Shown: piece after piece, positions 5,915 through 24,241 of the stretch | Numbering within the stretch: the stretch's first letter is position 1 | How the letters are laid out: each line of letters opens with the position of its first letter | NCBI GenBank assembly: GCA_947253655.1 | Contig: CAMYAE010000005.1 | Span: 5,078 to 69,077, forward strand | Source of the DNA: an uncultured Bacteroidales bacterium | GTDB taxonomy: Bacteria; Bacteroidota; Bacteroidia; Bacteroidales; UBA932 | Length of the DNA: 64,000 nucleotides | Direction: 5' to 3' | Position numbers and translations under genes: made by a program | Notes under the pieces: generated by a model | The model's database searches: none | The model's input: the letters and a program-made list of their open reading frames with translations, nothing else | What the model was told of the DNA's origin: nothing

Positions 5915-6314
5915 TATAATAGGACTATGAGGCGTAACAGTGCAAGCTGGGAGTACAGTGAACTGAAATGACAGCTACTAAGGATAAGTAGAAATACTTT
6001 CGCCATGAATGTCAGTTAAATGCATATTATAACGGTCATTAAAGTTAAGTCGTGGAGTCATATCCTTTTCCTTTTGGCGAGCAGAATAGTTCTTTGATAT
6101 GAGTGTATGAGTAAAAATCTGCCTCTATATTACGAATATCATATTGCTTGTAGAGAGGTGTATATAGCACATACAAACAAAATTATGACATTTAGTCTTT
6201 GGAGTTTCTGCTTAAAAGGGTTATGTGCAGAGTTAATTATTCAATGATGTACATTTTCTATATACAACACATCATTAAATAAATAAAAAGTCTTATCTTT
6301 GCATATTATATGAT

Positions 6315-6644
6315 ATGTTGACTATGGCGAAGAATACAATGGCTACTAAGTTGCCTCGGAAATTGGAGCAGAAGATGCAGATTGTAGGCGAGCAGATTAA
6401 GTTGGCTCGCTTGCGTAGAAATTTGAGTGTGGCTCAGGTGGCAGAACGGGCTACCTGTTCGCCGCTTACTGTGTCTCGTATTGAAAAAGGTATTCCTACT
6501 GTCGCGATAGGAATCTATTTGCGTGTATTGTATGCTTTGCAGCTCGAAGATGATATTTTATTGCTTGCCAAAGAAGATGAAATGGGTAGGGCGTTACAGG
6601 ATTTGAGTTTGAAAACAAGAGAACGAGCATCAAAAAAAGAATAG
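6315..6644 (+). CDS. hipB: XRE-family HTH regulator, HipB-like antitoxin component
   Basis: HTH_3 pattern IKLARLRRNLSVAQVAERATCSPLTVSRIEKG. Immediately upstream of HipA-homologous ORFs, 3-bp spacing. Confidence 0.7.
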   Translation: MLTMAKNTMATKLPRKLEQKMQIVGEQIKLARLRRNLSVAQVAERATCSPLTVSRIEKGIPTVAIGIYLRVLYALQLEDDILLLAKEDEMGRALQDLSLKTRERASKKE

Positions 6645-6647
6645 GCT

Positions 6648-6932
6648 ATGAGAGGGTTGTATGTATATGCCGATTTCGATTGGCTCAAAGAAGTGGAACT
6701 CATAGGCGAATTGGGCTATGAGTCTCTTCGAGGTGCAGACAGCTATAGCTTTACGTTCAATAATGAATGGTTAGGACAACACGGTGATCTGTTTTTGAGT
6801 GATGATTTGAACAATTATCCGGGACAGCAATACACACAGCCTGACAAGGACATATTCGGATGCTTTTCCGATGCCTTGCCGGATCGTTGGGGACGTACTT
6901 TGTTGTTAAGACGAGAACAAATCGCGGCATAG
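6648..6932 (+). CDS. hipS: HipS-like protein (HipA N-terminal subdomain as separate 94-aa ORF)
   Basis: HipA N-terminal couple_hipA-like sequence (...FSDALPDRWGRTLLLRRE). Ends at TAG, in the same frame as the downstream kinase ORF. Confidence 0.6.
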   Translation: MRGLYVYADFDWLKEVELIGELGYESLRGADSYSFTFNNEWLGQHGDLFLSDDLNNYPGQQYTQPDKDIFGCFSDALPDRWGRTLLLRREQIAA

Positions 6933-6956
6933 GAAGAAAATAGGCCGGTACGGAGA

Positions 6957-7931
6957 TTGTCGTCTTTCGATTTCTTAACCGGTATCGATGATTTCTTTCG
7001 GATGGGCGGGTTCCGTTTCAAGGAAGACCCTGATGACAAATTTATCAATGTAAGTGAATCACTGAAAATCCCCCCTCTGACAGATATCCGGGAGTTGATT
7101 GTTGCCAGTGCAGAGATTGAGAAAAGCGAAGAAAACAATATGCTCCCTGACAGGAAATGGATTGCACAGCTTGTGCAACCCGGAACATCATTGGGCGGTG
7201 CAAGACCTAAAGCAAATGTGATAGATGTAGATAAGACTCTTTATGTAGCCAAGTTCCCGTCTCGTCAGGATGATTATGATGTAGGACTTTGGGAGCATTT
7301 CAGCCACGTACTATCTATAAAAGCAGGAATAAATGCAGCTAAAACCAAAGTGCTGGCGGCAGGAGAAAAATATCATACACTGCTATCGCAACGCTTCGAC
7401 AGAACTCAAGAAGGAAAACTTATTCATTTTGCATCTGCTATGACCCTATTGGGGTTGAGTGATGGAGATAATGCAGCAAGTGGGCATGGCTATTTGGACA
7501 TTGTTGATTTTATAATTCGGAACTGCACAGATGTCGAGAAAAATCTGCAGGAACTCTACCGCCGTGTAGCCTTCAATATCTGTATAGGCAATAGTGACGA
7601 CCATTTCCGGAATCATGGTTTTCTTTTAAAGGCAAAGGGATGGACATTGTCTCCTGCATACGACATGAATCCCACTCTTAATGAGTATCAAAGCCTGCTA
7701 ATCTCTTCTACTTCCAACAAGGCAGATTTAAGTATCTTATTGGATGCTTGTGAGGAGTATATGCTCAACAGGAATAAGGCAGAGAAAATTGTATCAGAGG
7801 TGGTTGAAGCAGTGAAAGGATGGCGAGAATTGGCAACGCGATTAGGAATCTCCAAGAGAGAAATGGATATGTTTGCCGGAGTGTTGGATAGACGATATGA
7901 TAGTATGTTTAATTTCTCAATTCAAATTTGA
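6957..7931 (+). CDS. hipT: HipT-like Ser/Thr kinase (HipA C-terminal kinase core)
   Basis: HipA_C motifs: GTSLGGARPKANV, VAKFPSRQDDYDVGLWEHFSHVLSIKAG, NSDDHFRNHGFLL, LSPAYDMNP. Confidence 0.7.
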   Translation: MSSFDFLTGIDDFFRMGGFRFKEDPDDKFINVSESLKIPPLTDIRELIVASAEIEKSEENNMLPDRKWIAQLVQPGTSLGGARPKANVIDVDKTLYVAKFPSRQDDYDVGLWEHFSHVLSIKAGINAAKTKVLAAGEKYHTLLSQRFDRTQEGKLIHFASAMTLLGLSDGDNAASGHGYLDIVDFIIRNCTDVEKNLQELYRRVAFNICIGNSDDHFRNHGFLLKAKGWTLSPAYDMNPTLNEYQSLLISSTSNKADLSILLDACEEYMLNRNKAEKIVSEVVEAVKGWRELATRLGISKREMDMFAGVLDRRYDSMFNFSIQI

Positions 7932-8118
7932 CAAGGAGGAAATAACTATGAGTAGGGGATGTATTGATAGGAGCATATACGCAATGCGTGAGATTGCTGA
8001 TACTATTTAGCATGATATTGCGGGGGTTTTACAACCAAAGCCGGAGAAAGTTCAAGAGGACTATTGGACTATTTACGAGAAAGATTGCTTTGGCTCATAT
8101 CATTGTTATAAGGACTAC

Positions 8119-8555: not shown

Positions 8556-8960
8556 TCAATATTTCTTTCTCATGCTATCTCCCTTAAGCTCGAAGCGTAG
8601 TGATTTGTGTACGATTCTGTCCAGACAGGCCTCTGCAAGCATCTCGCTGCTGAAGACTCCGTACCAGTCGGCGACTGCCAGCTGGCTGGACAGGATCAGC
8701 GATTTTCTGTGATACCTGTCATCGATGATCTGCTCGAAGTCGTTCTGCTGCTGCCTTTCGAGACACTTCATCCCGAAGTCATCTATTATGAGCAGGTCCG
8801 GGGATATTGACCGAATACTTGTTCTCCTGCAACTCCTGGCACTGCTCAAGGCTCTCGTTTTCAAAATTGAAACGGCCTTTCAATGATCCCTCTTTGAGGA
8901 ACTTGGATATGTTGTCAAGGGCAATGTGTACAAGTATTACACCGATTATTGAGGCAAGCA
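8556..8960 (-). pseudogene. istB: IS21-family IstB helper ATPase, C-terminal fragment (frameshifted; N-terminal part including Walker A missing)
   Basis: ...PDLLIIDDFGMKCLERQQQNDFEQIIDDRYHRKSLILSSQL...DRIVHKSLRFELKGDSMRKK matches the IstB C-terminus. Upstream part readable only in a second frame. Truncated where the IS256-like copy begins. Confidence 0.6.
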
Positions 8961-8982
8961 TATAAAGCCAGATGTTCAATCG

Positions 8983-9604
8983 GATACTGTTTCAAAAAGT
9001 GTGTCTGAGAAGAGCTAAAAAAGAAAGTCTACGGATTTCTTTGTGTTTGTAAACACAAAACAAGAACTCTAAAAAAACGTAGACTTATGTATTTCACAAA
9101 GGAACAACTTTCCGAGGTATTATGCAAGCATGCGGAAAGAGAAAATGGTATCCAGGACCTGCTGGAGATAATGATTGAGAGTATGCTGGTCGCTGAAAGG
9201 TCCGAATACCTGCGAGAGGATGCATTGCCTGGTAATAAGAGAAACGGGTACAGAATGGGTCACACCTACGGTCAGGGACGGGCTCTTATATTCCGTATAC
9301 CCCGATATAGGTATGGCAACTTTCATCCTCAGATACTGGCTGTCCTGCACAATCAGGAGGACGAATGCGAGTGCTTGGCCGGCACCCTGTATGGCAAGGG
9401 CCTGACTCAGGAGCAGGTTGGCGAGGTGTTCAACGACATCTATGGGGAACACTACGGCAAGGCAAGCATTTTGAGGATGCCGGATTACCTTCGGAAAGAT
9501 GTCCAGGAGTGGCTGGGCCGCAGTTTGGACGCTTACTCTCCGAATCCTGTTCATAGATTGTGTGCACATCAAGACACACCGCAAACAATAATCTATGAAA
9601 GGGA
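8983..9604 (+). mobile_element. IS256-family (mutator-type) element, ~0.6 kb internal-deletion derivative, copy A
   Basis: Left terminus GATACTGTTTCAAAAAGTGTGTCTGAG. Encodes a transposase N-terminal 150 aa (GYRMGHTYGQGRALIFRIPRYRYGNFHPQ...) which then breaks off. The right end ...AAGACACACCGCAAACAATAATC resembles the inverse of the left IR. Near-identical inverted copy at 18457-19058. Confidence 0.65.
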
Positions 9605-9632
9605 ATTTTTCTTTTATATGTCTGTTGAGTGA
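9087..9632 (+). pseudogene. IS256-family transposase, N-terminal fragment only
   Basis: Transposase_mut-like N-terminal region. Similarity to copy B stops after ...GRSLDAYSP. Confidence 0.6.
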
Positions 9633-9869
9633 AAGCATAAATTCGCTTGGTTCATACAAAAAATCATATTTCAAATCTTCATTTAATTTGTATTTCCCGT
9701 ATGAAACTCTGATGATTTTGTTCTCTGCAAGCATCCTATTCAAAAGCACAACAAGAGAACCTTCTGATATGTTTTTCATACCAGAACGCACCGCATTCAG
9801 CAGGTCTTTTCTTGTGAATAGCCCGTTCTGTTTCCGAGCAATATCTATTATTTGATTTACAGTTGTCAT
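9605..9869 (-). pseudogene. AbiEi-like (type IV TA antitoxin) N-terminal wHTH remnant, truncated by IS insertion
   Basis: MTTVNQIIDIARKQNGLFTRKDLLNAVRSG...IIRVSYGKYKL matches the AbiEi_4 N-terminal domain pattern. After ~88 aa the reading frame runs antisense into the IS256-like element. The 249-aa track ORF 9120..9869 is this chimera. Confidence 0.5.
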
Positions 9870-9989
9870 TGTTGTTCTTGAATTATACTTTATCCTGTTT
9901 TACAATTCCTACTACCTTGCTATTTTACCTATTTATATTATCACAATATTGTGAACTTATTCAGCAGTACGTATGCTTACCTTGATTCG

Positions 9990-10640
9990 CCCTGGGAAGC
10001 AACCTTCGAGCAGCTTCCTGCGTATGTCACAGCAGATCTCCCAGTCCCGCGAGGCGGAAACCAATCCCATCAGGACTGCTTCGGTATGGGAGTGTGCCAC
10101 CTTGATAGAAAGATATTTACGATGAATCGCCGTGTAGCAGTATTCTGGGATACCGGCCGATAGCCTTTAGCCTTAGGGAAGATGAGTGGCAGCACCACGG
10201 GTAAGATTTCCGGAGCAAACCTCTTCACCTGTCTGAACTACTGGATTGTCGCCTGCGATGGCTCTCCGGAGACCAACCCGCCCACTCTCGTGTGTCGAGA
10301 ACCCTTCCTCTGCCACCATTGTGTGCCATTGCAACGTCTTAACCTTCAAGCTTGACCAAGCTATCGCTGATATAAGCGGTATCTTCCTAGGCATCGAGGC
10401 TTCCGAAAGTCAGTCCAATGGTGTGAGCCGTGCCCACAGCAAGTCCGCACAGATCAAGATGGTCGAAGTTTCCGAAGCCACCGCAATCGTCCTCTCCTTG
10501 CCGACAACATTGCCAAAAAAGGCATGCCCAGCACTACGCTGCTCCGAAGATTTTCTTCCGCTACTACTACGTCAACTACTCCACCTGTGAGAAGTCAGGC
10601 ATTATGCTGGCGGAGACCACCTGGACCGCTGGTGAATAGA
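9990..10640 (+). pseudogene. Degraded paralogue (copy A) of the secreted-protein gene at 15540-16300; multiple frameshifts
   Basis: ~70% nucleotide identity with the reverse complement of 15540-16300. Conserved peptide segments (ATFEQLP / IEASE / KIFFRYYYVN...EKSG) lie in three different frames. Confidence 0.45.
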
Positions 10641-10767
10641 TCAAATCTATGTAGTTCTCCCGGAAATTCTAAACCAATCCCTTTGCAGCTTTAGCGATTA
10701 CAGAGTGATTCATTTATCATTTTCGTGACCTCACGAAAATGATCCAAATGCTCTTAAGTGAGTTGTT

Positions 10768-11634
10768 TTACCTATTTTTCGGAAGCTTTGCAGAAGCCTT
10801 CTCAATCTTCTTCTGTTCTGAGGCGACTCGACGTTCTAATTTTTTAATATCCTCGGCGGGCGGTAATTCTTCCGGACGAATACCTCGTTGGCCTAACATA
10901 TCACGCACACTTTTATTATTTTGCATGTGTTCACGAGTAATGGTTGGCTCACCATATAGATTCTTCCCCTTGACATTATAATTAGTCATCTCTGTTGCCA
11001 GGTTTTTGGCTGCTATGGTCAGGGTAGGGAGAAAGTCAGCCAAAGGCCGATTATCTTTGACACCGAGACGTTTTTTCATATCCTCGGTAGTATGTCCACC
11101 AAATAGAACTGCATCACCCTTCGAACGAATTCTGCCAAATCCCTTATCATCGACTCCTCGCTCATAGATATGTTGAGATAGTTGCTTCTCAGACGCACGA
11201 AGTCTATCCCGAGATTCAAGGCGTGCAATGTAGTTAAGGCGTTCTTCAATTAATTCAGCTTTACGTGTCTGAACAGCAAAATAACTTTGTGCAAAGGCTA
11301 TCTCTTCTTTCTTTGGATCGCCATTCTGAGCAATCAAGTAACATGCAAATCTTGTTAGCATGTAATCCTTGATGTCACGTTCCGCTCCTTTGGCAAGGGT
11401 TATCATTTTCGTGACTTCACGAAAATGATCGTCAACATTGATTCCCTGAGTATTACATGACTCAACAGCTCTATTGATGGCTGTCTGGAAATTCTCCCAT
11501 CTGGCATACCCGAGAACCTTTTGAAGATCTCTTGCAAACCAAACTTCGACTTGTTCATTTCCGTTGTCGCTTTCAATGTATGTGGCAATACTATCAAAAG
11601 CAGATTTGTATTGAATGATAATCTTTTTATCCAT
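10768..11634 (-). CDS. dinD: DNA-damage-inducible protein D-like (Bro-N / DinD family)
   Basis: WFARDLQKVLGYARWENFQTAINRAVESCNTQGINVDDHFREVTKMI...YLIAQNGDPKKEEIAFAQSYFAVQTR matches the DinD N-terminal pattern (RDLQ..LGY..W..F..AI.RA..SC). Confidence 0.7.
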   Translation of the reverse strand: MDKKIIIQYKSAFDSIATYIESDNGNEQVEVWFARDLQKVLGYARWENFQTAINRAVESCNTQGINVDDHFREVTKMITLAKGAERDIKDYMLTRFACYLIAQNGDPKKEEIAFAQSYFAVQTRKAELIEERLNYIARLESRDRLRASEKQLSQHIYERGVDDKGFGRIRSKGDAVLFGGHTTEDMKKRLGVKDNRPLADFLPTLTIAAKNLATEMTNYNVKGKNLYGEPTITREHMQNNKSVRDMLGQRGIRPEELPPAEDIKKLERRVASEQKKIEKASAKLPKNR

Positions 11635-11766
11635 TTCCTAAGTACGTTAATATGCGAATTTACTGATTTTTCCCATACCCTACAATGTTTAAACAGAAAT
11701 AATAGAAGACTTCTGCTGATATTGGCTACGGTAGCCAGTGACATCGTTGAGCAGGTTGAAACGTCC

Positions 11767-12619
11767 TTATATCTGACACGAATTCGAGCCGCCGCCAATG
11801 ATAGAGGCATCGTTAGGTACGCGAATATGGACCACGGCGGAATCACACGATGCGTCCGCGAGATAATTCCGAAGCATACACGGGTGACAACCCTTGCCTG
11901 ACATGGTCAGTTGGAGTTTGGCCTGCAGACGATACCGCCCCGGATACTCTTCACCGCTGGGAGAGCGGAACATCAGCTTGGTCTCGGAACACGTGGCGTC
12001 CAGTAGCAACCGCTTGAGGGCGTCAAGGTCCTTAACGTTGTCGAATTTGAGACAACGGTATCCGCTGTGCTCCACCAACTTGTCATTGACCCGCTCTGAG
12101 ACGACTCCAGAGAAGGTGCTATAGGCGAAGTAGGACGCCTTATAGTTGTGTCTCGTGTTCTTGTCCTCGATGGAGTGCAGTTTCTCGGTCTCGGCCTGAG
12201 CGTAGTGACCGGTGATGTAGTTCCAGTCATCTAGCAGCGTGCTGGACTTGTGGGAAGTCTTGTTGGTGGCTGGAGCCTTGAAGAAAGAGAAGGAGGGGAG
12301 CGGCTTTACCGGGACCGCGTTGCAGCCGAATGGACTGTAGCCAGCCTCAGGCAGGAGATAGAGGTCTTCGTTGATGGGCGATGAGCAGATCCTGTCCGTC
12401 TTTCTTCCAGTACAACTTTGCGAAGTCAAAGCAGTAGCCATCGGTGATGGCGTCGAACTGGTCTTTGTGTCGGGCGATTTCATCGGAGAGTTTCTGCTCC
12501 GCATGAAGTTTTTCCGTACAGGCGTGGAGGGTCTTGCTGCCATCGGCAAACGGATTCCTGTAGATGCCGCATTCGCGACCGGAGATTTTCATCACGATTC
12601 TGCCGGCAGTTCCTGCCAT
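11767..12619 (-). pseudogene. Hypothetical protein, apparently frameshifted (N-terminal 12619-12347 in one frame, C-terminal 12230-11767 in another)
   Basis: Protein-like N-terminus MAGTAGRIVMKISGRECGIYRNPFADG... and protein-like C-terminus ...LKFDNVKDLDALKRLLLD... are joined only by a frame change near 12340-12360. No family recognised. Confidence 0.35.
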
Positions 12620-12818
12620 TTGCTATTTTCCGATGCATACTTTGCGAAGGATTGATACTCAATAATATAGCAAAGTTGTGATACAAATGTGGTACATTGT
12701 TCAATGATAGCAAAAATTGATATTAATTGCTTGTTGAAATGTTCCAATATGCGAAGATACAAAAACATTTTTTCCACTGAAGATATTTAGGTAACTTTGC
12801 GTATCTAAGCGTTGTAAT

Positions 12819-13925
12819 ATGAACATTGATGTAAATAAACTCTTTGCTTCTAGCGATCTTGAATGCAAGGTCGTTGCCGGATGGACTATCGTTAATAAGC
12901 TTGCTGCACCTGACAAAAGTAAAAATGAAACTGGAGGGAATTTCTCAACATGTTACAAAGTTGAGAAGGATGGCGTGGTTGCCTTTATGAAGGTCCTTGA
13001 TTATGCCAAGATTATGATGCTATATGGTCAACTCACACCCCAGATAATGCAGCGTGCATCATCTGAATTTAATTATGAGAAGGCCCTTTCTGAATACTGT
13101 GTAAATAGACGTGTTTCTAAAGTCGTTCATTATATTGAGTCCGGGGATGTTCTGCTCGATGGTTATATAGTCAATGGTAGCGTCTCATTTATTATTTATG
13201 AGATGGCAGATGGTGATATTCGTAAGGTCCTTGATTTGTCCTCTAAAGCCGAATTGGCGGCAAGGATTAATTCTCTGTCAACAAAGTTGAATTCGCTCCA
13301 CGATGTGTCTGTTGGGTTAAGTCAACTTCATATGAATGATATTTCACATCAAGATATTAAGCCATCCAATATCCTCTCGATTAAAGGCGAATCCAAAATC
13401 GGAGATCTGGGTAGATCAATATGTTTTGATTCCAGTGTAAGTTGCCCTTATTCTGCTCTCTTTAATGGAGATAAAAATTATGCCGCCCCAGAATGCTATT
13501 ATCCGGACTTTGTAAGTAGTATAGAAAGCCTCTATCAGATTGATAATTATATGCTTGGCGGATTAATTGCTTACTATATAACTGGACTTACTTTCAATGC
13601 GTTGATGAACAATCATCTTCCTGACGTGCTTCAATTTTCTAAATTTCGGAGTATTCAGACACAAACATATTGCAATGTTTTGCCAGATATGATGAATGCA
13701 TACCAGAAAGCGCTTAAAGACTTCGAGAACGAAATTCCAATAGATGAGGTTAAAGTCGGGCTAGTGTCCCTTGTCGCATATCTGTGTAATCCAGACCCAA
13801 ACCGACGTGGTCACCCAAAGAATGTATTGGAGACATCCCGCACGCCAAATTATGATTTGCAGAGGACAATACAGGAACTTGATGTTTTGCAGAAGAAAGC
13901 TGAGTTGGCTTTAATTAAGAAATAG
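12819..13925 (+). CDS. Eukaryotic-like Ser/Thr protein kinase (stand-alone kinase domain, 368 aa)
   Basis: Complete ePK motif set: VAFMKV (VAxK), HQDIKPSNIL (catalytic loop), IGDLG (DFG-like), YAAPE, DNYMLGG. No TM segments. Low-GC gene. Confidence 0.8.
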   Translation: MNIDVNKLFASSDLECKVVAGWTIVNKLAAPDKSKNETGGNFSTCYKVEKDGVVAFMKVLDYAKIMMLYGQLTPQIMQRASSEFNYEKALSEYCVNRRVSKVVHYIESGDVLLDGYIVNGSVSFIIYEMADGDIRKVLDLSSKAELAARINSLSTKLNSLHDVSVGLSQLHMNDISHQDIKPSNILSIKGESKIGDLGRSICFDSSVSCPYSALFNGDKNYAAPECYYPDFVSSIESLYQIDNYMLGGLIAYYITGLTFNALMNNHLPDVLQFSKFRSIQTQTYCNVLPDMMNAYQKALKDFENEIPIDEVKVGLVSLVAYLCNPDPNRRGHPKNVLETSRTPNYDLQRTIQELDVLQKKAELALIKK

Positions 13926-13926
13926 T

Positions 13927-15453
13927 ATGGCATCATTTAAGGAGGATGAGAAAAGAAACGTAGTCCCTAACTGGAGAGATTACAATAAGACCGCTAAACT
14001 CGGTGAGTTTGGCAGTTCTCCTATTGCTACCCAACCTCTTGAACTGTTCCCTATAGACGAATATGTTGTAGCCTGGCAGAATAATAAGAGTGTATCTTTT
14101 GCTGGCGATTTACTGTCAGCCGCCATTTTGAATGGACATCAATCAAACCCATATGCAATAGAGGCCGCTAAATTTGTGATCGCTCACAAAGATGAGGCTA
14201 CGAATGTTCTTGTAAGGACTGCACAATCGGTGATTGCGACACCGGAAGAAAAGGCTGCTGCTGCTCAATTGACAGTCCCTCAAAAAATAGCTCAGATCCA
14301 AAATCAAGAAGAAGCTGTTCGAAATGAAATAAAGTTGCTTAAACAAAGCCGAGACTACTGCTGCTATAATCCGATTGCTTTTTGTGAAATGGCCAGGTGC
14401 TATGTTACACTGGGACAATTTGACAAGGCAAAAGAGGCTATGGAAGTGGCTCTCCATCTTGCACCAAATCATAGATACATTTGCCGTTCTGCCGCTCGTC
14501 TCTATCTTCACCTTATGGATGAGGACCGTGCAAGATATATTATTGCCAAGAATCCAGCATTACTCCACGATCCATGGCTTCTTGCATCAGAAATCGCTGT
14601 TAATACATTAATGGGCAGAACTTCTCGCCACATCAAAAAAGGTTCAGAGCTGATTGCTTCTCAGAATTACTCTCCTTTTAGCATTAGTGAACTTTCAAGC
14701 GCTATTGGTTCTGTTGAAATGATTAATGGCAACAAAAAGAAGTGTCGTTCATATTTCAAAACTGCTTTACAAAAGCCAAATGACAATAGCCTTGCGCAGG
14801 CAAGGTTCCTTCTTTCTAAAAACGCCGACTTGACTTTTGAATTCGGAGATGATATTGCTATTCCTAACGCTTTTGAAGCTGATGCGATTACCGCATATAT
14901 CTCAGACGATTACGCCAAATCATTAATTACAGCAGTTGATTGGATTGAAGATATGCCTTTTACAAGAAGGCCTGTCCAGTTCGCAGCAAATATTGCATAT
15001 TCATTCTTAAAGGACTATGGTACTGCCATCGATATTCTTGACCTGGGGCTGAAGTCTAATCCCAATAATCCTATGCTCTTGAATAATAAGGCGTATGCGT
15101 GTGCCTTATCTGGTAAAACACTTGAAGCGGAGCGAGCTATTCAGGAAGCCAAAAAGTTGCAGTTACCCCCGGATGCACAGGTCTGTCTGATTGCTACAGA
15201 AGGATTAACGGAATATAGAAAAGGCAATATCGATGAAGGGCGTAGATTATATACTGAAGCAATACAGTTAGCAAAGTCGTCTTTCCCTGATCCTCGCATT
15301 GCGAATACTGCTCTTTTGAATTTTACAAGAGAAGAAGCTCGGGCTGATGAAGCTTTTGATAAATCAGTTCTTGATGTCATAGACAAGATCCCCAATGATT
15401 GCAAGGAAACTGTTCAGTTAAAAATGGACATTAAAGCCGAAATTAAAGATTAG
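13927..15453 (+). CDS. TPR-like helical repeat protein (508 aa), translationally coupled to the kinase
   Basis: ATG lies 1 nt after the kinase TAG (AAATAGTATGGCA). Repeated amphipathic helix pairs (…LGQFDKAKEAMEVALHLAPNHRY…, …LGLKSNPNNPMLLNNKAYA…). Confidence 0.7.
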   Translation: MASFKEDEKRNVVPNWRDYNKTAKLGEFGSSPIATQPLELFPIDEYVVAWQNNKSVSFAGDLLSAAILNGHQSNPYAIEAAKFVIAHKDEATNVLVRTAQSVIATPEEKAAAAQLTVPQKIAQIQNQEEAVRNEIKLLKQSRDYCCYNPIAFCEMARCYVTLGQFDKAKEAMEVALHLAPNHRYICRSAARLYLHLMDEDRARYIIAKNPALLHDPWLLASEIAVNTLMGRTSRHIKKGSELIASQNYSPFSISELSSAIGSVEMINGNKKKCRSYFKTALQKPNDNSLAQARFLLSKNADLTFEFGDDIAIPNAFEADAITAYISDDYAKSLITAVDWIEDMPFTRRPVQFAANIAYSFLKDYGTAIDILDLGLKSNPNNPMLLNNKAYACALSGKTLEAERAIQEAKKLQLPPDAQVCLIATEGLTEYRKGNIDEGRRLYTEAIQLAKSSFPDPRIANTALLNFTREEARADEAFDKSVLDVIDKIPNDCKETVQLKMDIKAEIKD

Positions 15454-15460
15454 AAAAATA

Positions 15461-15497
15461 CGCCCGCCTCGATTCGCATCGGAGCGGGTGTTTTCGA
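15461..15497 (+). terminator. Weak putative rho-independent terminator after the kinase-TPR operon
   Basis: GCCCGC-N16-GCGGGT hairpin (one G-U pair) followed by GTTTTCG. Confidence 0.3.
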
Positions 15498-15539
15498 TAA
15501 GAATACCCTTGCGGGAAGGTGGAATCCACGCTGAACTAC

Positions 15540-16272
15540 ATCAGCTTGCCCTGGGCGAGGATTTCTCCTGACTTTTCGCCGGTTGCGGTGTTGACGAAGA
15601 AGTACTTGAAGAAGACCTTCGGATCTCCGGCAGAAGGAGTGCCACACTTGGCCTCGTAGCTGGACTTGATGTCGATAGCATCGGTGGACGGAGTGACAGG
15701 TGCACCAAATGTGGCAGCTTTGCCGTAAGCACGAGTGATACCGTTGCCCTGAGGTTCGGAAGCCTCGATGACGAGCTTGAGGTTGGTGGTGTCAGCTGGA
15801 GCGCTGGAGAGAGTAAACGTAATAGTACTTGAACTGATGACAATGACAGCGGGTGCAGGTGCCTCGACACCGGTGAGAGTAGGAGGGTTGGCCATTACGG
15901 AACCGCCACAGTAGACTACCCAGTAGTTGAGCCTCATAATGAGGTTCGCACCGGAAATCTTGCTTTTGGTGCCGAGAACCGACTTGCCTTTCTGGGTATT
16001 GTGCATTGGTGAGACCCTTCCAGCCCTGCGAGAGCTGATTGAAGGTTGCCTTGACGGAAGACGGTACCGCCGATGCCGAAGGAGTGATTTCTTGAAGTAG
16101 AGAGCCCTGAAATCACTGAGAAAGCACACAGCTGTGCTGCTAAGGCTGCGGATAAAGACAGGAATCTCGACACCTCTACTGTATTACCAAGCGGAGCGAG
16201 TTTTGAAAGACCGGAGGTTTGTCGATCGGAGTGAAACGGAGAGCGCCAAAATTCCGGTTCCGCTCTGCCCAT
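15540..16272 (-). pseudogene. Secreted-protein paralogue copy B (signal-peptide-like N-terminus). The coding sequence is spread over 3 frames, so it is either frameshifted or carries sequencing errors.
   Basis: N-terminus RFLSLSAALAAQLCAFSVISG (signal peptide-like). C-terminal 130 aa are intact in one frame (...IEASEPQGNGITRAYGK...KVFFKYFFVNTATGEKSGEILAQGKLM). A middle segment (KATFNQLSQGWKGL) is only in a third frame. Confidence 0.45.
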
Positions 16273-16331
16273 TAAGGGGCGTCTTCCGGCATCGCAGTGG
16301 ATGCAAAGGTGCTGGACACCTTGCCTGTAGT

Positions 16332-18083
16332 TTAAATATTCCCTTGGTATATAACCTTTACGTTAGGATGTGCAAGTAGTTTCTGCATGTAAGACCCTTC
16401 AAAGCCGTCCATAGTACTGATGGCTTCAAAATTCCCAAGGATTATAAGTTTACATTTAGCCCTTGATAACGCGACATTCAACTTATTAGGATTGTACAAA
16501 AAATCAGATAGTTCGTTGATGTAATCTATATTGCCTGATGTCAAAGAAATAATAATAACCTCTCTTTCTTGACCTTGCAATTTATCTATAGTATCAACTA
16601 CTATTCCTCTCTTGTATTCATCCGCTATCATATCATCCTTGAATAGTTTTCTGCGTATTTCACTGCATTGAGCTCTAAAGGGTGCTAAGACGCCTATTCT
16701 GTTACAACTAAATCCAGCAGAGAAATACTCTCTTATAATAGCGTCAACTTCAACAGCTTCGCACGTTGATGATTGACGACCATTGCCTGAGATGTTCTTT
16801 GCAATTATGGAATAATCTCCTGATAGGTATTCACTATCGATATCTATAGATAGCCTTTTATCTGGATTGTATGATTTAAGTTTACCATCATAGAATAGGT
16901 CTGATACAACTTCACAGATAGGACCATTCATTCTGAATGATGTGTCAATCATCATGCAGTTCTTCTCACTCAACATATAGTTGAATACGGATTGCTTCAG
17001 TGGTTCGACAATGTTTTCAGCCTTGATTATAGGTGTTAACTGCTTATGATCACCGCATAATATGAGTTTCTTGCAATTGAAAGCGGCCATCATTGCCACC
17101 GGGATACTCATCTGTCCAGATTCATCAATTATAACTGTATCAAACTTAATCCCCTCGGCTCTGGATGAGTAGAAAGTATAAGGAGTCATTCCCATTACAA
17201 GGTTTGTCAACTCATTTACACGACCAACGTCAAGATAACAAGATATATTATTAATGGTCAAGGTTTTATCACCTGATACAAAAGAAAGACCAGCCGTCTG
17301 AAATGGATAACCGACTTTTAATATACCTTCGACATGACTAGGAAGGATTTCCCCGATTTTTACGAGAGCGTTGTTGATGGCCATATAGTTTGGTCCAGTA
17401 ATACATACTCTTTCACCAAGTTCGAAAGCCAAAATTATTGCAATAAGAGCTATGACAAACGATTTTCCTGTACCTGGAGGGCCTTGTAGCATATAGTAAT
17501 CTTTGGCGGCAAATGCTCTCGCGATAGCCTCTCTTTGTGACTCCAAAAGAGTCATGCCCAATTCCTGCTCTACTGTCTGGATATGTTGTTTCCAGACATC
17601 AACATCTACATCAAAAACCACATCTTGCTTCGATGGAATGATACTGCTATTCCAGAATGGGGAATCTTCACTCGGAAGATCTAACATAAATCGTCTGTAC
17701 GATGAAGCGAGGAAGTTTCCATATTGCTTTTCTACAACAACTTCTTTTCCATCATCAAAGCAGTGCATTGGTATGCCAGCTCTACCCCAGAATCCTATTA
17801 TTAGATTTTCCTCGTTATCATAGTCCCAGATTGTAGCCTCGTAGCCGTTGACCAAAACAGCATCTCCTACACCTAGTGATGAGTGGTTTGTATCAACTAT
17901 AAAACGACATAATCCATAATCGCCAGAAGACTTGGAATAATTTCTGTCGTAACGTAGGCCAACAATCGCTTTCCTTGCCTTGACTTTTTCTTTAATCGAA
18001 AGCTTTCTGTATGAATCTATCTCCCTCTGTGATTGAGCATGCTCCTCGTCAATGAATTGCTGTAAATCTTTTCTTGTAATCAT
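16332..18083 (-). CDS. Upf1-like SF1 helicase (AAA_11/AAA_12, DNA2/NAM7 type) with ~190-aa unknown N-terminal domain
   Basis: GPPGTGKS (motif I), VIIDESGQ (II), TSFRMNGPICEVVSDLFYDG (IV/V region), VDTIDKLQGQEREVIIISL, NVALSRAKCKLIILG (VI). Confidence 0.8.
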   Translation of the reverse strand: MITRKDLQQFIDEEHAQSQREIDSYRKLSIKEKVKARKAIVGLRYDRNYSKSSGDYGLCRFIVDTNHSSLGVGDAVLVNGYEATIWDYDNEENLIIGFWGRAGIPMHCFDDGKEVVVEKQYGNFLASSYRRFMLDLPSEDSPFWNSSIIPSKQDVVFDVDVDVWKQHIQTVEQELGMTLLESQREAIARAFAAKDYYMLQGPPGTGKSFVIALIAIILAFELGERVCITGPNYMAINNALVKIGEILPSHVEGILKVGYPFQTAGLSFVSGDKTLTINNISCYLDVGRVNELTNLVMGMTPYTFYSSRAEGIKFDTVIIDESGQMSIPVAMMAAFNCKKLILCGDHKQLTPIIKAENIVEPLKQSVFNYMLSEKNCMMIDTSFRMNGPICEVVSDLFYDGKLKSYNPDKRLSIDIDSEYLSGDYSIIAKNISGNGRQSSTCEAVEVDAIIREYFSAGFSCNRIGVLAPFRAQCSEIRRKLFKDDMIADEYKRGIVVDTIDKLQGQEREVIIISLTSGNIDYINELSDFLYNPNKLNVALSRAKCKLIILGNFEAISTMDGFEGSYMQKLLAHPNVKVIYQGNI

Positions 18084-18456
18084 CTCTTTATGCGAAATGC
18101 TTGTTCTTCTAGAATGTGGTTAATACAATCTTAACACAAAATTTTCCCGTCTTAGAGTTCGTACATATCCTCTACTGGCAGATATTCTCCGTATCTATCG
18201 CAATGTACATCTCTACATCGTTGAATTCGTGTGACATAACTTAGTGTGTGTTTGATTTCTACAAATATAACGATTTGTGCTAACTTTACATAAGCGTATC
18301 ATACGCTATGGCAAAGATTTATGTAGCAAGAAGTTGGAGTAATGCTTTATATAAAGATATGGATCAGCGACTTCGTGACGCTAGCCATTAGGTCTATGAT
18401 TTCCGCAATCATCCCTTACGGCAAGCAGCACATAGAACGTCTCGTATCCACGCTCC

Positions 18457-19058
18457 GTTTGCGGTGTATATTGATATGCACACAATCTATGAACAGGATC
18501 GGAGAGTAAGCGTCCAAACTGCGGCCCAGCCACTCCTGGACGTCTTTCCGAAGGTAATCCGGCATCCTCAAAATGCTTGCCTTGCCGTAGTGTTCCCCAT
18601 AGATGTCATTGAACACCTCGCCGACCTGCTCCTGAGTCAGTCCCTTGCTGTACAGAGTGCCGGCCAAGCGTTCGCATTCGTCCTCCTGATTGCGCAGGAC
18701 CGCCAGTATCTGAGGATGAAAGTTGCCATACCTGTCTCGGGGTATACGGAATGTAAGAGTCCGTCCCTAACCGTAGGTGTGCCCCATTCTGTACCCGTTC
18801 CCCTTATTACCAGACACGGTGTCCTCACGCGTGTATTCGCACCTTTCAGCGACCATCATACTCTCAATCATTATCTCCAGCAGGTCCTGTAGACCATTTT
18901 CTCTTTCCGCATGCTTGCATAATACCTCGGAAAGTTGTTCCTTTGTGAAATACATAAGTCTACGTTTTTTTAGAGTTCTTGTTTTGTGTTTACAAATCTA
19001 AAGAAATCCGTAGACTTTCTTTTTATCTCATCTCAGACACACTTTTTGAAACAGTATC
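18457..19058 (-). mobile_element. IS256-family ~0.6 kb deletion derivative, copy B (inverted relative to copy A)
   Basis: The reverse complement is near-identical to 8983-9597: same terminal GATACTGTTTCAAAAAGTGTGTCTGAG and the same internal end point ...CACCGCAAAC. Carries transposase N-terminal fragment ORFs 18767..18955 and 18416..18667 (frameshifted). Confidence 0.65.
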
Positions 19059-19652
19059 AAGGATTGTCGTTTGAAGCGTTATAATCACTGATAAACGATG
19101 CAATGGATTTCCTGAATATCTTTGTGGCCGGTCAAATGAAAGAACAATCTCCGGTCTGCTTGTGCTGCAATTAAAATTGACCTTTAGTGTAAATCTGTCG
19201 TAATATGTGCATCCTTTAACCCGTCTTGTAGCATGAGCCTGCCCGAGAAGCCATACTTGGTTGTCACCGATAAATGTCGGTTCCACTATGGTGTTCATTC
19301 TTTGGAAATAGAACATAATTTCTCGATTGAAATATCTTTTGACAAGTGCAAAATTCTTCAGGTTGTTGAAGTCGATTTACAACTTTGAGTATCCGTCAAC
19401 CTCACGTGAAAATGATGTGTATATTGTTTCCGCATTTCCGATTCTGGGGAATATTTCTTCAATATTAACTGGAAACAGTTGGTGAGAAAGCGGAGTCAAT
19501 GACATACCTTCCTTGTCTGTTCTCGAGAACCAGAAAGTAACTGGCTCAGAAGGGAAGCTGAATAGAAGCGAATTTAGTCGAAGGTCTTTTTTCGCTGGCT
19601 CCTGTGTATAGTTATTGCCTTTGTAGTATGCGATTTTGAACGTTTTTTAGTG

Positions 19653-21383
19653 TTATTTGAGTTCTGCGGATTCGATGGTCGCCTGACCGCAGAAGGAGGC
19701 TTCTAGCATCTCGAGGGAGGTGGTACCTTTGTCGAATGCGAACCATATGTACGGTGCATCATCGGAGCGATACATCTTGCCGATGTATTCTTCGAAATTG
19801 GCGTTAACGAAAGCCTTGATGTCGCCGAAAGGGGTAACACGAAAGAAGTCGCATTTGCCGTTATAGACGCTTATGAGGTCGGTGCGGAACTTGTCGTGGA
19901 TGCGGTGCTTGACGCTCTCGTTGTCAGAGTTGGTGACGTATGAAGCGAGAACGAACAGGAAGTTGATATTGTACGCCTGAAGAACCAGTGTGTCTCGGTC
20001 AAACGGACGGTTCTTGAAGTGGGCGTTTGCCGGTATGATCTGGTTGTTCTGAGACAGACGATCCTCGGAGTAGCAGGCGTGCCCATCGGTCAGGTCTTCA
20101 GCCTTGACATATCCGCGCACGAAGAAGTTCGGCGTCAAGTTATAGCCCTCTGTAAGGGGGTCACGATAGCGGACGTTCTCAATTATCCATTGCTCCTCAT
20201 TTTTCAATTCACCGGGAAGCTTGTTGAAGATGTTGATGTTGAGCTGGATTATGTTCTTGGCATAGGTGAACTGTTTGTAGATGGATTTCTCGTCCAGGTC
20301 GGAGCCGTAGAAGTAGTACTTACTGTCGCCTATGTAGTAGATTTGGCTGTTGTCCACAAGGGATTTGTCCTTGTAGATGTGGTCGATTTCCTTGCCGTCT
20401 TCGTTCTCCTTGAGGTCGGAGAATATGTCGTCACCGATGAGACAGTCAACCATATCTTCGAACACTCGGTCAAATTTGCTGGCGAGGAGGGCTTCCTCCC
20501 GACTCTTGCCGGACCGTATGGTCTCTGACTTTTCGAAGAAGGCGTAGAGCAGTTTCCAGAGGAGAACCAGTTCGTCCTTGAAGTATTTGCAACGGATGGA
20601 GCGGAGCAGTTTGGTGCCTCGCTTTGACTCTATCATTGCATCGACCTTGGCAGGCTTAATCAGCTCGTAGTTCAGGTTGGCTCGAACGGGGAAGAAGTAG
20701 CGCAGCCGCAGATATTCCAGGACCGAGTAGAAAATGACTATGAGTTCCTCGTCATAGTTGATTGCCTTTTTCTTGTTGCGGAATTCAGCATAGAACGGCT
20801 CGTTATCTTGAATGATTGGCTGTACTGTGCTTATGGTCTTTCCCCAATGAATCTTGTTGTTGCCGCTGGTGTTTATTATGGAGATGTAGGTGAAAAGGTT
20901 CGCATGCTCCTTGTGGAATGCGACGAGGGAGAGGATGGTGTCGAGAAGTGTCTGGTTATCCTCGCCTTTGTCCGAATTCACTCTGCGGATGTCCGTGCGC
21001 CTGATGATTTCACTTTTTGGATGACGGACGGAATACTTATCGATTGCTCGATAGATCCAGGTGGAAAGGCCGAACAGCACTCGGTCAAGACCATCTTCTT
21101 TGAGAGGGTTGTGGTCCGGGGAGATTTCAATGACGTCTTCGACTGAATACTTCCCGAAGGCGATTTCCAGCAGGTTTTTCTCTTTGTCTATCTTGCCGCT
21201 TCCTTCAAACAGGAAGACCTTCGGCAGGATGAATATCGTGTCGTTTATCTTCGGAGAATAGATATAGCCTACATACGTCAGGATTCCCTCGATCTTGTCC
21301 CTTGACGTGTACACGTAGGACTCAAGGCCGTAGCTCTCCAGCAGTTCTGGGCTGTATGACTGTCCTTCGAAGAGAATTCTCAT
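19653..21383 (-). CDS. McrC-like / LlaJI.R2-like endonuclease subunit (PD-(D/E)xK)
   Basis: Third gene of the dcm-mcrB operon, 10-bp spacing. C-terminal region with IDHIYKDK...YYIGDSKYY resembling the McrC D...(D/E)xK nuclease motif. Confidence 0.6.
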   Translation of the reverse strand: MRILFEGQSYSPELLESYGLESYVYTSRDKIEGILTYVGYIYSPKINDTIFILPKVFLFEGSGKIDKEKNLLEIAFGKYSVEDVIEISPDHNPLKEDGLDRVLFGLSTWIYRAIDKYSVRHPKSEIIRRTDIRRVNSDKGEDNQTLLDTILSLVAFHKEHANLFTYISIINTSGNNKIHWGKTISTVQPIIQDNEPFYAEFRNKKKAINYDEELIVIFYSVLEYLRLRYFFPVRANLNYELIKPAKVDAMIESKRGTKLLRSIRCKYFKDELVLLWKLLYAFFEKSETIRSGKSREEALLASKFDRVFEDMVDCLIGDDIFSDLKENEDGKEIDHIYKDKSLVDNSQIYYIGDSKYYFYGSDLDEKSIYKQFTYAKNIIQLNINIFNKLPGELKNEEQWIIENVRYRDPLTEGYNLTPNFFVRGYVKAEDLTDGHACYSEDRLSQNNQIIPANAHFKNRPFDRDTLVLQAYNINFLFVLASYVTNSDNESVKHRIHDKFRTDLISVYNGKCDFFRVTPFGDIKAFVNANFEEYIGKMYRSDDAPYIWFAFDKGTTSLEMLEASFCGQATIESAELK

Positions 21384-21393
21384 ACCGCTGTCG

Positions 21394-23022
21394 TTATGCT
21401 TCCTCTACCTCGATATAAGCCATAAATCCCTGCAAACGCTTGTTGGTGTCGTCATTGGTAGGGAAGAGGCTGTTGAATGTGAATTCGGCATCGCTGTCGT
21501 TCTTGTCCTTGAAGAAAGAGCCGGACTTCTCATATTCCTTGCATACCTCGCTCCAGAGGTAGAACATAACTTTGCTCTTGAACTCTTCAACATCAACATC
21601 CTTCTTGATGAAGAAGTTGCCCATCTGTTTGTCCTCGGAATCTGAAAGTTTATGGATGCATTCGTTGGCCTTATCGAGGAATGAAGCCCATTTGTACATC
21701 TTGTCTCCGATTGTGATCTTGAACTGAGATTTAGTATTAGAAGAATCAATCGGCACATATTCCCAAGCCCAGCGACGCTTGAATGCACTGTCCATAGGGA
21801 AGAGGGACTGGTCTGAAGTGTTCATTGTAGCCAGTATGTGAAAATTCTTCGGGAGACAAAGTTTCCCGTTATCAATCCCTTCGCTTCCGTCAACTTCATC
21901 AATATCAAGTCTTCTTAATTCTACTTCAAGATAATCCTTGAGGTCGGTGTCAGCATCGATAGGGTATTCTGAATATCCATCATACCTATCGAGTAGTTGG
22001 AAAAGGTCTCCAAATATCTGTGCACAATTCCCTCTGTTAATCTCTTCAATAACAAGATATACAGGGATATCTGGATTTTTCCAAGCTTTACAATATGCCT
22101 TTGTGAACGCTTGAGGAATAAATTCGTATGTCAAAGTGTCTGCAACCTTCTTCGGCTTATATGCTCCCACAAATGTGGAATAGTCGGAATCCGGATGGAA
22201 TGTTGTCCTGAAATCAATACCAGGATTATTGTTAATGTATTCTGCGACAGAGTGGGATTTGCCACACCCAGGTGCACCAAAGTATATCTTTTGCAGTGCC
22301 ACAGCTATTGTCGGCGCAGGAGTGTTTGCTGGCGGATTGGCAATTGCAAACAAAGTTCTAATATCGTCATCGTCGATTTCAGGAGCCAAAGAAACGAAAG
22401 TGAGTCCAAGAACTTGACAATAGTTGTCGAAATCTTGTTGCAATGGAAGAATTTGAGTGGCATAATCTGCCGTCAACAATGAATTAAGCTCATCTCTAAC
22501 GGACATATAGAAATTAGCCTCCGTGAGTTTGTGAGAACGCAAAAGCCAAAGAACCAGAGCTGTTTTATGCAAAGGTGCCGATATGTATGCATCCAAATTT
22601 TTAATCAGATTCGGGTTCTCGAAAAGTTTTCCCGATTGGACGTGCATTATAGGATTAGACCCTCTGCGGGGGAAAACAAGTTGCTGTCCTCCGTTTTTGG
22701 TTGATTCCCTAACAACATTGACAGAATAAAAATTGCTTCCTACGGCATAATCTGAATTATGGTCAAGAGGGTAGTAAAAATTAGATGTGTATGAAGTATT
22801 ATTTACAGAAACAACCTTGCCCACATTCTCAATATATGCAGCGGCATCATCTTTATCTTTGACATTGCATTCACGTCCAAATTTTTTGTAGAACATATCG
22901 AGTGCGATGGAGTAACGAATTGCACTCACTCTTTGAGTTGCCCCCTGAGCAAGAGGATCTGTGCTTAAAGTCGACAGTTTCTTATAAGCGGCAAGTATTG
23001 TCTCTTTTGATAAAAAAGCCAT
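21394..23022 (-). CDS. McrB-family AAA+ GTPase restriction subunit (LlaJI.R1 / BsuMI-like) with ~230-aa N-terminal DNA-recognition region
   Basis: Walker A YFGAPGCGKSH. McrB signature LVIEEINRGNCAQIFGDLFQLLDR. ILATMNTSDQSLFPMDSAFKRRWAWEY matches the McrB NTD.R..D.AL.RRF motif. Confidence 0.8.
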   Translation of the reverse strand: MAFLSKETILAAYKKLSTLSTDPLAQGATQRVSAIRYSIALDMFYKKFGRECNVKDKDDAAAYIENVGKVVSVNNTSYTSNFYYPLDHNSDYAVGSNFYSVNVVRESTKNGGQQLVFPRRGSNPIMHVQSGKLFENPNLIKNLDAYISAPLHKTALVLWLLRSHKLTEANFYMSVRDELNSLLTADYATQILPLQQDFDNYCQVLGLTFVSLAPEIDDDDIRTLFAIANPPANTPAPTIAVALQKIYFGAPGCGKSHSVAEYINNNPGIDFRTTFHPDSDYSTFVGAYKPKKVADTLTYEFIPQAFTKAYCKAWKNPDIPVYLVIEEINRGNCAQIFGDLFQLLDRYDGYSEYPIDADTDLKDYLEVELRRLDIDEVDGSEGIDNGKLCLPKNFHILATMNTSDQSLFPMDSAFKRRWAWEYVPIDSSNTKSQFKITIGDKMYKWASFLDKANECIHKLSDSEDKQMGNFFIKKDVDVEEFKSKVMFYLWSEVCKEYEKSGSFFKDKNDSDAEFTFNSLFPTNDDTNKRLQGFMAYIEVEEA

Positions 23023-23026
23023 AATG

Positions 23027-24241
23027 CTATTTCTTTATCTGGTTAATCAATGACGTTGCAACCACCCATCCAAGAACGGGTGGAACTGCATTACCAATTA
23101 CTTTATATCGTGATTGAAGAGGAATTGACTCAAATGAATAGTTGTCAGGGAAAGACTGGATTCTGGCAATCTCCCGAACAGAATATCTTCTATTCTCAAC
23201 TGGATGGGTTATGCCACAATTTTCGGGTTGAGCAGACGCAGTGATTGTGCCATTGATTTCCCCAAAAGCGAATCTTCTGAAAAATTTAGGTGCATGATAC
23301 TTCTTGGGGTCATCGTAAATTTTCTTAAATCGTGGCGTAAGCTTTTCTGGGGGAATATCTTTCCATGATTTGCCTTCAAATACTCTGTCCGGCATGTCTG
23401 ATAACTTGAAATCTCCCTCAAAATATTTTGATGCTGAGGCTTTATGCGAACACGGCCCAATAAGTTCAATCATATCCTGGGTAGTTTTGCTATACTCCCA
23501 GCATCCTTCGTCATTCAACTTTTTGACATCATGAAGGATTGAACCCAATAACAGCTTTTCGTATGTTCCATTTTTTTCTGATGGGATGTCGAAAACGTTT
23601 ACAAGGCGGTCCATCTCTGCGAAATCGAACGAGCCTATTGATTTAAGTATACCGATTATTAGCACTCGATATCTTTTTTGAGGTACGCCATAGTCACTTG
23701 CGCGAACAAGTTGCATACTGACATTATATCCAAGTACCTCCATCCTATTTCTTATTTCTTGCGGAACAGTGATGCCGGATGGCATTTTTGAAGACAAGAT
23801 GCCACGGACATTTTCAAAAACAAAAGCGGCTGGTGCTTTGCCTGTATCAACTTTATGTTTGATTATTCTTTCGCATTCTTCGAAAAGAGTACCTCTTCCG
23901 TTATCATCGTTGACGCCCTTTCTGTTTCCAGCATTAGAAAAAGGCTGACATGGAAAGCCGGCGAGAAGAATGTCAAAGTCCGGAATAGACTCTGATGACA
24001 CTTCTCGTATATCTTTTAGAAGACAATTCGTGCCGTCCGATACAAGTAGTGGATTTGCATTATAGCAATCGGCAGCATTCTTATCAAAATCATTTGCAAA
24101 CACTATTGATGTCGGCTGCTTTGAGAATTCTTTTCCGTAAAATGTAAAACCTCCTGTAAATCCAAGGTCAAGTCCGCCGCATCCAGAAAATAAGGATGCT
24201 ACGCGAATTTTGTCGCCAAATATGTATTTCTTCTTTGCCAT
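23027..24241 (-). CDS. dcm: DNA (cytosine-5)-methyltransferase
   Basis: Motif I FSGCGG, motif IV PCQPFS, ENV, QKRYRVLIIG, GNAVPP. 4 bp upstream of the McrB-like gene. Confidence 0.9.
   Translation of the reverse strand: MAKKKYIFGDKIRVASLFSGCGGLDLGFTGGFTFYGKEFSKQPTSIVFANDFDKNAADCYNANPLLVSDGTNCLLKDIREVSSESIPDFDILLAGFPCQPFSNAGNRKGVNDDNGRGTLFEECERIIKHKVDTGKAPAAFVFENVRGILSSKMPSGITVPQEIRNRMEVLGYNVSMQLVRASDYGVPQKRYRVLIIGILKSIGSFDFAEMDRLVNVFDIPSEKNGTYEKLLLGSILHDVKKLNDEGCWEYSKTTQDMIELIGPCSHKASASKYFEGDFKLSDMPDRVFEGKSWKDIPPEKLTPRFKKIYDDPKKYHAPKFFRRFAFGEINGTITASAQPENCGITHPVENRRYSVREIARIQSFPDNYSFESIPLQSRYKVIGNAVPPVLGWVVATSLINQIKK

Follow-up and report, generated by a model that had tools for sequence, protein, structure and literature searches.

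Decayed IS256-Family Fragments That Bracket a Defense Cassette in a Bacteroidales Genome and Probably Serve as a Substrate for Its Inversion

The Inverted Pair of IS256-Family Relics

The 64,000-nucleotide stretch analyzed here (positions 5,078 to 69,077 of contig CAMYAE010000005.1, from an uncultured Bacteroidales bacterium) is referred to in its whole length as the window, and all coordinates are those of the window unless a contig is named. It contains two fragments of an insertion sequence (IS) of the IS256 family that face each other in inverted orientation across a group of defense genes. An earlier note, made from the sequence alone, had described the fragments as an inverted pair bracketing a cargo segment, and this arrangement was borne out: the interval between them (9587-18408) spans 8.8 kb. 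The fragments are designated relics, or copies, A and B, and the left and right terminal inverted repeats of the element are abbreviated IRL and IRR. The features of the pair, including the runs of sequence identical in both copies, are as follows.

8983..9586 (+): relic A, IS256-family; element positions 1-602 of ~1455; IRL only; N-terminal transposase pseudogene from the ATG at 9087
8983..9009 (+): IRL of copy A, 27 nt, identical to copy B and to the IRLs of the intact relatives L036 and L049
9046..9149 (+): longest A/B identical run, 104 nt, equal to 18893-18996 on copy B; contains the crossover of contig L001 and one switch of contig L009
9153..9185 (+): 33-nt A/B identical run; contains the crossover of contig L070
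9435..9499 (+): 65-nt A/B identical run; contains the second switch of contig L009
18409..19058 (-): relic B, IS256-family; element positions 1-650; IRL only; transposase pseudogene from the ATG at 18955
19032..19058 (-): IRL of copy B

A repeat search of the region from 7 to 21 kb recovered the pair as copy A (8983-9586, plus strand) and copy B (19058 to ~18409, minus strand), aligned in three colinear inverted blocks (8983-9021/19020-19058, 9018-9543/18499-19024, and 9544-9586/18457-18499) with 93 to 95% complementarity. No other repeat of 60 nt or longer was found in the window. In a MAFFT alignment the two copies differed at 41 of 604 columns (93.2% identity), so that calling them near-identical had been an overstatement; about 7% of positions differ. 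Perfect identity extends over runs of 104, 65, 42, and 33 nt. The claim that both copies carry the same terminus was confirmed: the 27-nt terminus GATACTGTTTCAAAAAGTGTGTCTGAG occurs exactly twice in the window, once on each strand, whereas shuffled sequences gave an expectation of 0.

Alignment to four long relatives set the extents of the copies at element positions 1 to 602 for A and 1 to 650 for B. The outer starts proposed earlier (8983 and 19058) stand, but copy A ends at 9586 rather than 9597 and copy B near 18409 rather than 18457. The internal end points are 48 nt apart, and the common end point that had been proposed is simply the position at which the shorter copy stops. Copy B reads on into ...HRKRSVDTETFYVLLAVRDD, where the relatives have ...HRKRSVDTEAFYVLLAVKED. 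Neither copy has an IRR, and the DDE domain is largely gone from both. Their shared 150 N-terminal transposase codons can be recognized roughly, but the reading frames are broken, in copy A by a +1 frameshift (an extra A at 9543) and in copy B by a stop codon (TAG, 18769-18767, codon 63) and by the loss of 1 nt near 18441, which shifts the frame by -1. Gene callers place spurious open reading frames (ORFs) across the relics, for example ORFs of 249 and 97 aa.

The assignment to the IS256 family (prototype IS256 of Staphylococcus/Enterococcus; PF00872, NF033543) was upheld. The N-terminal transposase sequences matched Pfam Transposase_mut (PF00872) at 1e-16 for copy A and 2.3e-12 for the repaired copy B, and a full-length relative passed the NCBIfam equivalog for IS256. 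Relatives were gathered by fetching the DNA of one protein match (L002) and by scanning GTDB genomes with the 27-nt terminus. The closest protein relatives were all Bacteroidales IS256-family transposases, mostly fragments, and none of the 5.8 billion proteins searched was closer than 83% aa identity. The exact terminus was present in 42 GTDB stretches, from Bacteroides, Alistipes, Muribaculaceae, Prevotella, Paludibacteraceae, and Odoribacter. A scan of JGI metagenomes with a subfamily-specific 34-mer gave 0 matches.

These relatives included the full-length element with IS256-type inverted repeats that the earlier note had proposed looking for. The element is 1455 bp long with a single 428-aa transposase ORF, and it is intact in L036 and L049. 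The L036 transposase scored 309.6 bits against NF033543 (cutoff, 150). The terminal inverted repeats are imperfect and 21 to 25 nt long (IRL, GATACTGTTTCAAAAAGTGTGTC; IRR, GACACACTCGATGAAACACTA), and L036 is flanked by an 8-bp target-site duplication (TSD), GAGATTTC; none was seen at L049 or L038. In transposase, length, and terminal repeats, and for L036 also in the TSD, the relatives resemble the IS256 family. In contrast, the window copies are pseudogenized 5' fragments of 604 and 650 nt with 80 to 81% nucleotide identity to the intact elements. Judged by homology, the window elements can be placed in the IS256 family, although not as functional members. Two relatives from unrelated genomes have tandemly duplicated left ends, with two complete IRLs 38 nt apart in one (L002:253-317) and 77 nt apart in the other (L028:295-398).

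Contigs With Exchanged Linkage

The exact copy A ORF led to contig L001 (ENA ERZ27269880, MEGAHIT k141_73694, 5888 nt). It runs from window position 19722 to 19059 (100% identity over the 500 nt tested), carries one IS copy, and continues through window positions 8983-14207 at 99.87% identity, covering a fragment of an abiEi antitoxin gene (abiEi'), dinD, a kinase gene, and a tetratricopeptide repeat (TPR) protein gene. The contig links the outer flank of B to the inner flank of A, which is the product expected from inverting the bracketed segment. At the 41 sites that discriminate between the copies, it has six B states and then 35 A states (B up to 9045, A from 9150), with no private change, indicating one clean crossover within the 104-nt run at 9046-9149. 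The earlier suggestion that the cassette had undergone IS-mediated movement or inversion is thus supported for inversion, at the level of a contig in a related assembly. It is not supported for movement, as the unit was found at one chromosomal site.

Two further contigs carry hybrid IS copies. L070 (ERZ27231625, k141) begins in flank A and has eight A states followed by 26 B states, with the switch in the 33-nt run at 9153-9185. This is the form expected at the other side of the flip, with a different crossover point; the contig ends before the inner flank. In L009 (ERZ28658251) six A, 30 B, and five A states follow each other between copy A's own two flanks. Such a mosaic must have arisen from a flip that was reversed at another point, from gene conversion, or as an artifact. 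The switches of L001, L070, and L009 lie in the first, second, and fourth longest identical runs, as predicted by homology-dependent exchange. L069 was considered as a recombinant and rejected, because most of its B states are shared with the outgroup and its private changes number 14, as in a diverged orthologue of copy A.

At least five contigs on the B side and three on the A side have the linkage of the window (L004, L007, L015, and L069 among them), and one contig with this linkage matches the window exactly over 121 kb. Because most contigs carry it, the window orientation is taken as the commoner one and is probably ancestral.

The explanation that we favor, with a probability of roughly 0.7, is that the inert IS relics act as a substrate for homologous recombination and that this has produced an inversion polymorphism of the 8.8-kb defense cassette. 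Two IS256-family copies would each have lost the 3' ~800 to 850 nt, with the IRR and most of the DDE domain, in separate deletions. The remnants would then have decayed to pseudogenes within a chromosomal defense island and lost their function as transposon ends. What was left, ~600 nt of 93%-identical inverted repeat, could serve as a passive substrate for the recombination machinery of the host. A crossover within the repeats would flip the 8.8 kb that hold abiEi', DinD/PDC-S13, the PDC-M71 kinase-TPR pair, a 156-aa gene, and an MkoA-like helicase, and strains would come to differ in the orientation of this segment and to carry hybrid or mosaic IS copies. The exchange is presumably RecA dependent, the second junction of the flipped allele would be the reciprocal of the first, and the flip would be expected to have no functional effect.

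IS1181-flanked unstable inversions in Staphylococcus aureus arise by homologous recombination between inverted IS copies (PMC6778178). The likeness to the present locus is that inverted IS copies provide portable homology, that the crossover falls inside the repeats, and that no sequence is lost, so that the event is reversible in principle. The differences are that the repeats here are truncated relics with 93% identity, that the segment is only ~9 kb and carries defense genes, and that the inversion is known from metagenome contigs rather than isolates. Inversion between inverted IS copies is an ordinary, well-known class of event.

Weighing the Alternatives

Several points count against inversion between the relics. 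The evidence for recombination comes entirely from short-read metagenome assemblies. One of the two flipped-allele junctions was seen, and the flipped linkage was seen in one contig (L001) from one sample; the helicase-side contig from the same sample (L019) stops 151 nt into the IS, at an allele boundary. The L009 switches occupy the 104- and 65-nt runs, the longest stretches of identity, and collapse of a de Bruijn graph at k ≤ 55 would give the same pattern. Reciprocal ORFs of 179 and 148 aa were predicted from L009, and neither was present in the protein collection. The two truncation points fall within 48 nt of each other, for which P is ~0.065 by chance if truncations are uniform along the element. 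This closeness is suggestive but not compelling. Finally, the outer IRLs are identical to those of the intact elements at 27 of 27 positions, which makes mobilization in trans conceivable.

Some of these points would also be explained if the pair were nothing more than inert relics, with the segment fixed in its orientation and with L001, L070, and L009 being assembly chimeras of the 93%-identical repeats. We consider this possibility unlikely. Besides the short-read origin of the contigs, the placement of the L009 switches, and the missing reciprocal ORF, it is favored by the number of contigs that break inside the IS (L005, L010-L012, and L017-L020) and by the window linkage of most contigs. 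However, L001 and L070 were built at k = 141, and the runs in which they switch, 104 and 33 nt, are shorter than this. The hybrid k-mers must therefore come from reads, an argument that is an inference on assembler behavior and not a read-level one. In addition, L001 and L070 each have one clean switch with no private differences, and crossovers were found at three positions in three different samples. The evidence of L009, which came from another assembler, is weaker than that of L001 and L070.

In three samples, k141 contigs end inside the IS at the boundaries of discriminating sites (L019 at its start, L010 and L070 at their ends; window equivalents 9436, 9501, and 9413). These contig ends at allele boundaries hint at a mixture of recombinant haplotypes within one sample.

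If recombination between the relics does invert the cassette, the inversion might also be useful to the cell. Phase variation is common for defense genes in Bacteroidales. The relic pair could have been co-opted as a RecA-driven flip-flop, a bet-hedging switch that is made of dead IS fragments instead of a dedicated invertase and that sets the defense island differently in different cells of the population, although this seems very improbable. Similarly little credence is given to the idea that orientation places the MkoA-like helicase and the 156-aa gene behind either a dcm-mcrBC operon or hipBA, or to the idea that, in one of the two orientations, mcrBC transcripts read through into dinD/PDC-S13 as antisense. 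The cargo does consist of defense genes, more than one recombinant form was found across samples, and in the window orientation the minus strand carries dcm, the mcrB-like and mcrC-like genes, relic B, and the helicase, with no terminator-like site found on it between 19653 and 18083 (mcrC to helicase). The sigma-70 promoter and terminator scan, which was not designed for Bacteroidales promoters and performed barely above shuffle expectation, was used only for this terminator point. Opposed to a switch are the lack of a nearby site-specific recombinase, the decay of the repeats, which are pseudogenes rather than conserved short inverted repeats, and the occurrence of the flipped linkage in a single contig. 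Furthermore, the helicase retains its own upstream region with a TAnnTTTG-type promoter motif (read by eye), and this region moves along with the helicase in the flip. A neutral polymorphism is much more likely than a functional switch.

A dedicated inversion system is likewise not indicated. Megabase inversions in Eggerthella lenta involve 16-bp inverted repeats (PMC13131767). These inversions, like the invertons and shufflons of Bacteroidales, resemble the present locus in that inverted repeats border a segment of a gut bacterial genome that occurs in either orientation, in a context of phage defense. Such systems have short conserved inverted repeats and a dedicated recombinase, whereas the repeats here are ~600-nt decaying IS remnants with varying crossovers (9046-9149, 9153-9185, and 9435-9499). 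None of the genes listed within ±10 kb encodes a recombinase. With no recombinase gene listed nearby and with crossovers that differ in position and follow the longest runs of identity, the evidence best supports general homologous recombination as the mechanism and lends no support to a site-specific inverton.

The earlier note had argued for a non-autonomous, internally deleted IS whose two copies make up a composite-transposon-like structure. Specifically, the fragments would be deletion derivatives and the 10-kb IRL-cargo-IRL unit would be a composite transposon mobilized in trans by a full-length IS256-family element. There is some basis for this. As in the composite transposons Tn4001 (IS256-flanked), Tn10, and Tn5, related ISs in inverted orientation enclose genes that are not part of an IS, and both outer boundaries are IS termini. 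The IRL at both outer boundaries is perfect over 27 nt and identical to that of elements with an intact transposase, and such elements are widespread in Bacteroidales, as the 42 GTDB stretches with the exact terminus indicate. The IRL resembles the IRR, so that an IRL-IRL pair is conceivable as a substrate.

Unlike in Tn4001, Tn10, and Tn5, there is no functional transposase, TSD, or inner IS terminus here, and the ISs are truncated at different points (602 versus 650). The 8- to 9-bp TSD that the earlier note had proposed seeking at the outer ends was not found around the whole unit (8975-8982, TTCAATCG, versus 19059-19066, AAGGATTG), nor was one found at 8 to 9 bp around copy A as a 604-bp unit (TTCAATCG versus TATGAAAG). 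Each copy has an IRL only. The sequence at the inner end of copy A that had been likened to an inverse terminal repeat was rejected as a pseudo-IRR: positions 9571-9593 match the genuine IRR at 12 of 25 positions ungapped, below the best random sites in the window (15 to 16 of 25) and the true IRLs (18 of 25). Its first 16 nt are plain coding sequence of the transposase, with counterparts of common origin in copy B and L002. Copy B, too, has coding sequence at its inner end, which continues into the region upstream of the helicase.

Evidence for mobility was lacking beyond the ends as well. None of the 42 GTDB stretches with an exact IRL had a 0.6-kb derivative ending at position 602 or 650 (...CACCGCAAAC), and the 64-kb window contained no other IS256-type transposase ORF, intact or not. 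No IRL-cargo-IRL unit was found at a second site. Wherever a contig with cargo genes was recovered, the outer flanks were the same pair: hipBA-istB' and, on the opposite side, dcm-mcrB-like-mcrC-like. The absence, among the relatives found, of any above ~81% nucleotide or 83% aa identity further disfavors mobilization in trans, as does the lack of linkage among the cargo genes in relatives. The nearest non-identical helicases (59 to 70% identity) lie beside housekeeping genes or in other restriction-modification islands, with no IS and no kinase-TPR pair.

The sequence that adjoins relic A on its inner side bears on the same question, as does the one on its outer side.

9588..9869 (-): abiEi', encoding the N-terminal 94 residues of an AbiEi antitoxin; joined at 9586/9587 to relic A where the IS is broken internally
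8556..8864 (-): pseudogene fragment of IstB (the IS21 helper), on the outer flank of relic A; IS-into-IS insertion

The abiEi' fragment was recognized by PADLOC as AbiEi (5.8e-16, profile positions 3-92 of 240). Because it meets an internal point of the IS rather than an IS terminus, the joint at 9586/9587 is a deletion joint and not an insertion scar. A single deletion therefore removed the 3' portions of both the IS and abiEi, and abiEii was presumably lost with them. Thus, abiEi is indeed truncated at copy A, as the earlier note had remarked, but by deletion and not through disruption by an inserting copy. The same joint is present in more diverged strains (represented by P0243, P0244, and L069) and is therefore old, which also disfavors transposition of the unit. 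On the outer side of relic A, the insertion of one IS into another is of a kind often seen in gut bacteria (PMC10592638).

In strain ERZ27283128, the interior of copy A and abiEi' (L069:2898-3800, corresponding to window 9150-9870) are ~5% diverged from the window, and the remainder of the 33-kb L069 contig, copy B included, is 0 to 0.2% diverged. The patch, which crosses the IS/abiEi' joint, looks like a locally imported or fast-evolving one.

The arrangement fails as a composite transposon and as a deletion derivative resembling a miniature inverted-repeat transposable element on every point that could be tested, nothing indicates past movement of the unit, and its mobilization in trans is very improbable.

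With recombination between inert relics as the preferred explanation, the main value of the analysis is a correction. The apparent composite transposon with its defense genes is bracketed by two decayed IS256-family stumps whose position in the chromosome is fixed, and the locus should therefore not be counted as evidence of cassette mobility. Contigs from independent gut metagenomes suggest that dead IS fragments nevertheless keep reshaping the defense island by providing homology for inversion and allele exchange. The locus might serve as a natural test case for the in vivo recombination rate of ~0.6-kb repeats at 93% identity and for the placement of crossovers relative to identity runs. 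A practical consequence is that assemblies break or become mosaic at this locus.

Cargo and Outer Flanks

The other genes of the cassette, and those on the outer flank of B, are as follows.

10176..10615 (+): paralogue X', frameshifted pseudogene of the 156-aa gene, with ~50% aa identity to 15539-16006
10768..11634 (-): dinD, DNA damage-inducible protein D with a Bro-N domain (NCBIfam, 362 bits; cutoff, 242); PADLOC candidate PDC-S13
11767-12549 (-): 260-aa ORF between dinD and the kinase gene; weak PADLOC match to PrimPol (2e-4), no Pfam or NCBIfam family
12819-13925 (+): Ser/Thr kinase; PADLOC candidate PDC-M71A (3e-106)
13927-15453 (+): TPR protein; PADLOC candidate PDC-M71B (3e-163)
15539..16006 (-): 156-aa gene; no Pfam, PADLOC, or NCBIfam match
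16332..18083 (-): superfamily 1 (SF1) helicase (AAA_11/AAA_12), related to the helicase domain of Mokosh MkoA; inner neighbor of relic B
19653..24241 (-): outer flank of B, comprising a dcm methyltransferase, an McrB-like AAA protein, and a 576-aa partner; LlaJI/McrBC-like restriction operon that reads towards relic B

The operon on the outer flank of B matches the PADLOC 'REase_II' models (LlaJI-like), and its 576-aa partner has no Pfam family. The 156-aa gene and its frameshifted paralogue form an older inverted pair nested within the IS pair. A single ancient inverted duplication spanning both the IS copies and this gene pair is unsupported; the paralogues share ~50% aa identity and the IS copies 93% nucleotide identity, and nothing else between the two halves could be aligned. 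Rfam and tRNA scans of the window gave no matches. In line with a host among the uncultured Bacteroidales, the closest MnmE protein that is not identical to that of the host has 73% identity, and the matches with a name, at ~60%, come from 'Bacteroidales bacterium' MAGs.

Several minor observations concern the same region. The length of the ORF at 11767-12549 varies between strains (258 or 245 aa in other assemblies). The hipA gene (6648-7931) is split in the window into ORFs of 94 and 324 aa, and an intact 427-aa gene is present in L009 and L069. The strains of these two contigs differ from the window by a dense patch of substitutions that is confined to ~6000-8000. A 31-nt palindrome, TTATCATTTTCGTGAC(C/T)TCACGAAAATGATC, occurs twice, at 10714-10744, just 3' of the dinD stop codon, and at 11400-11430, inside dinD.

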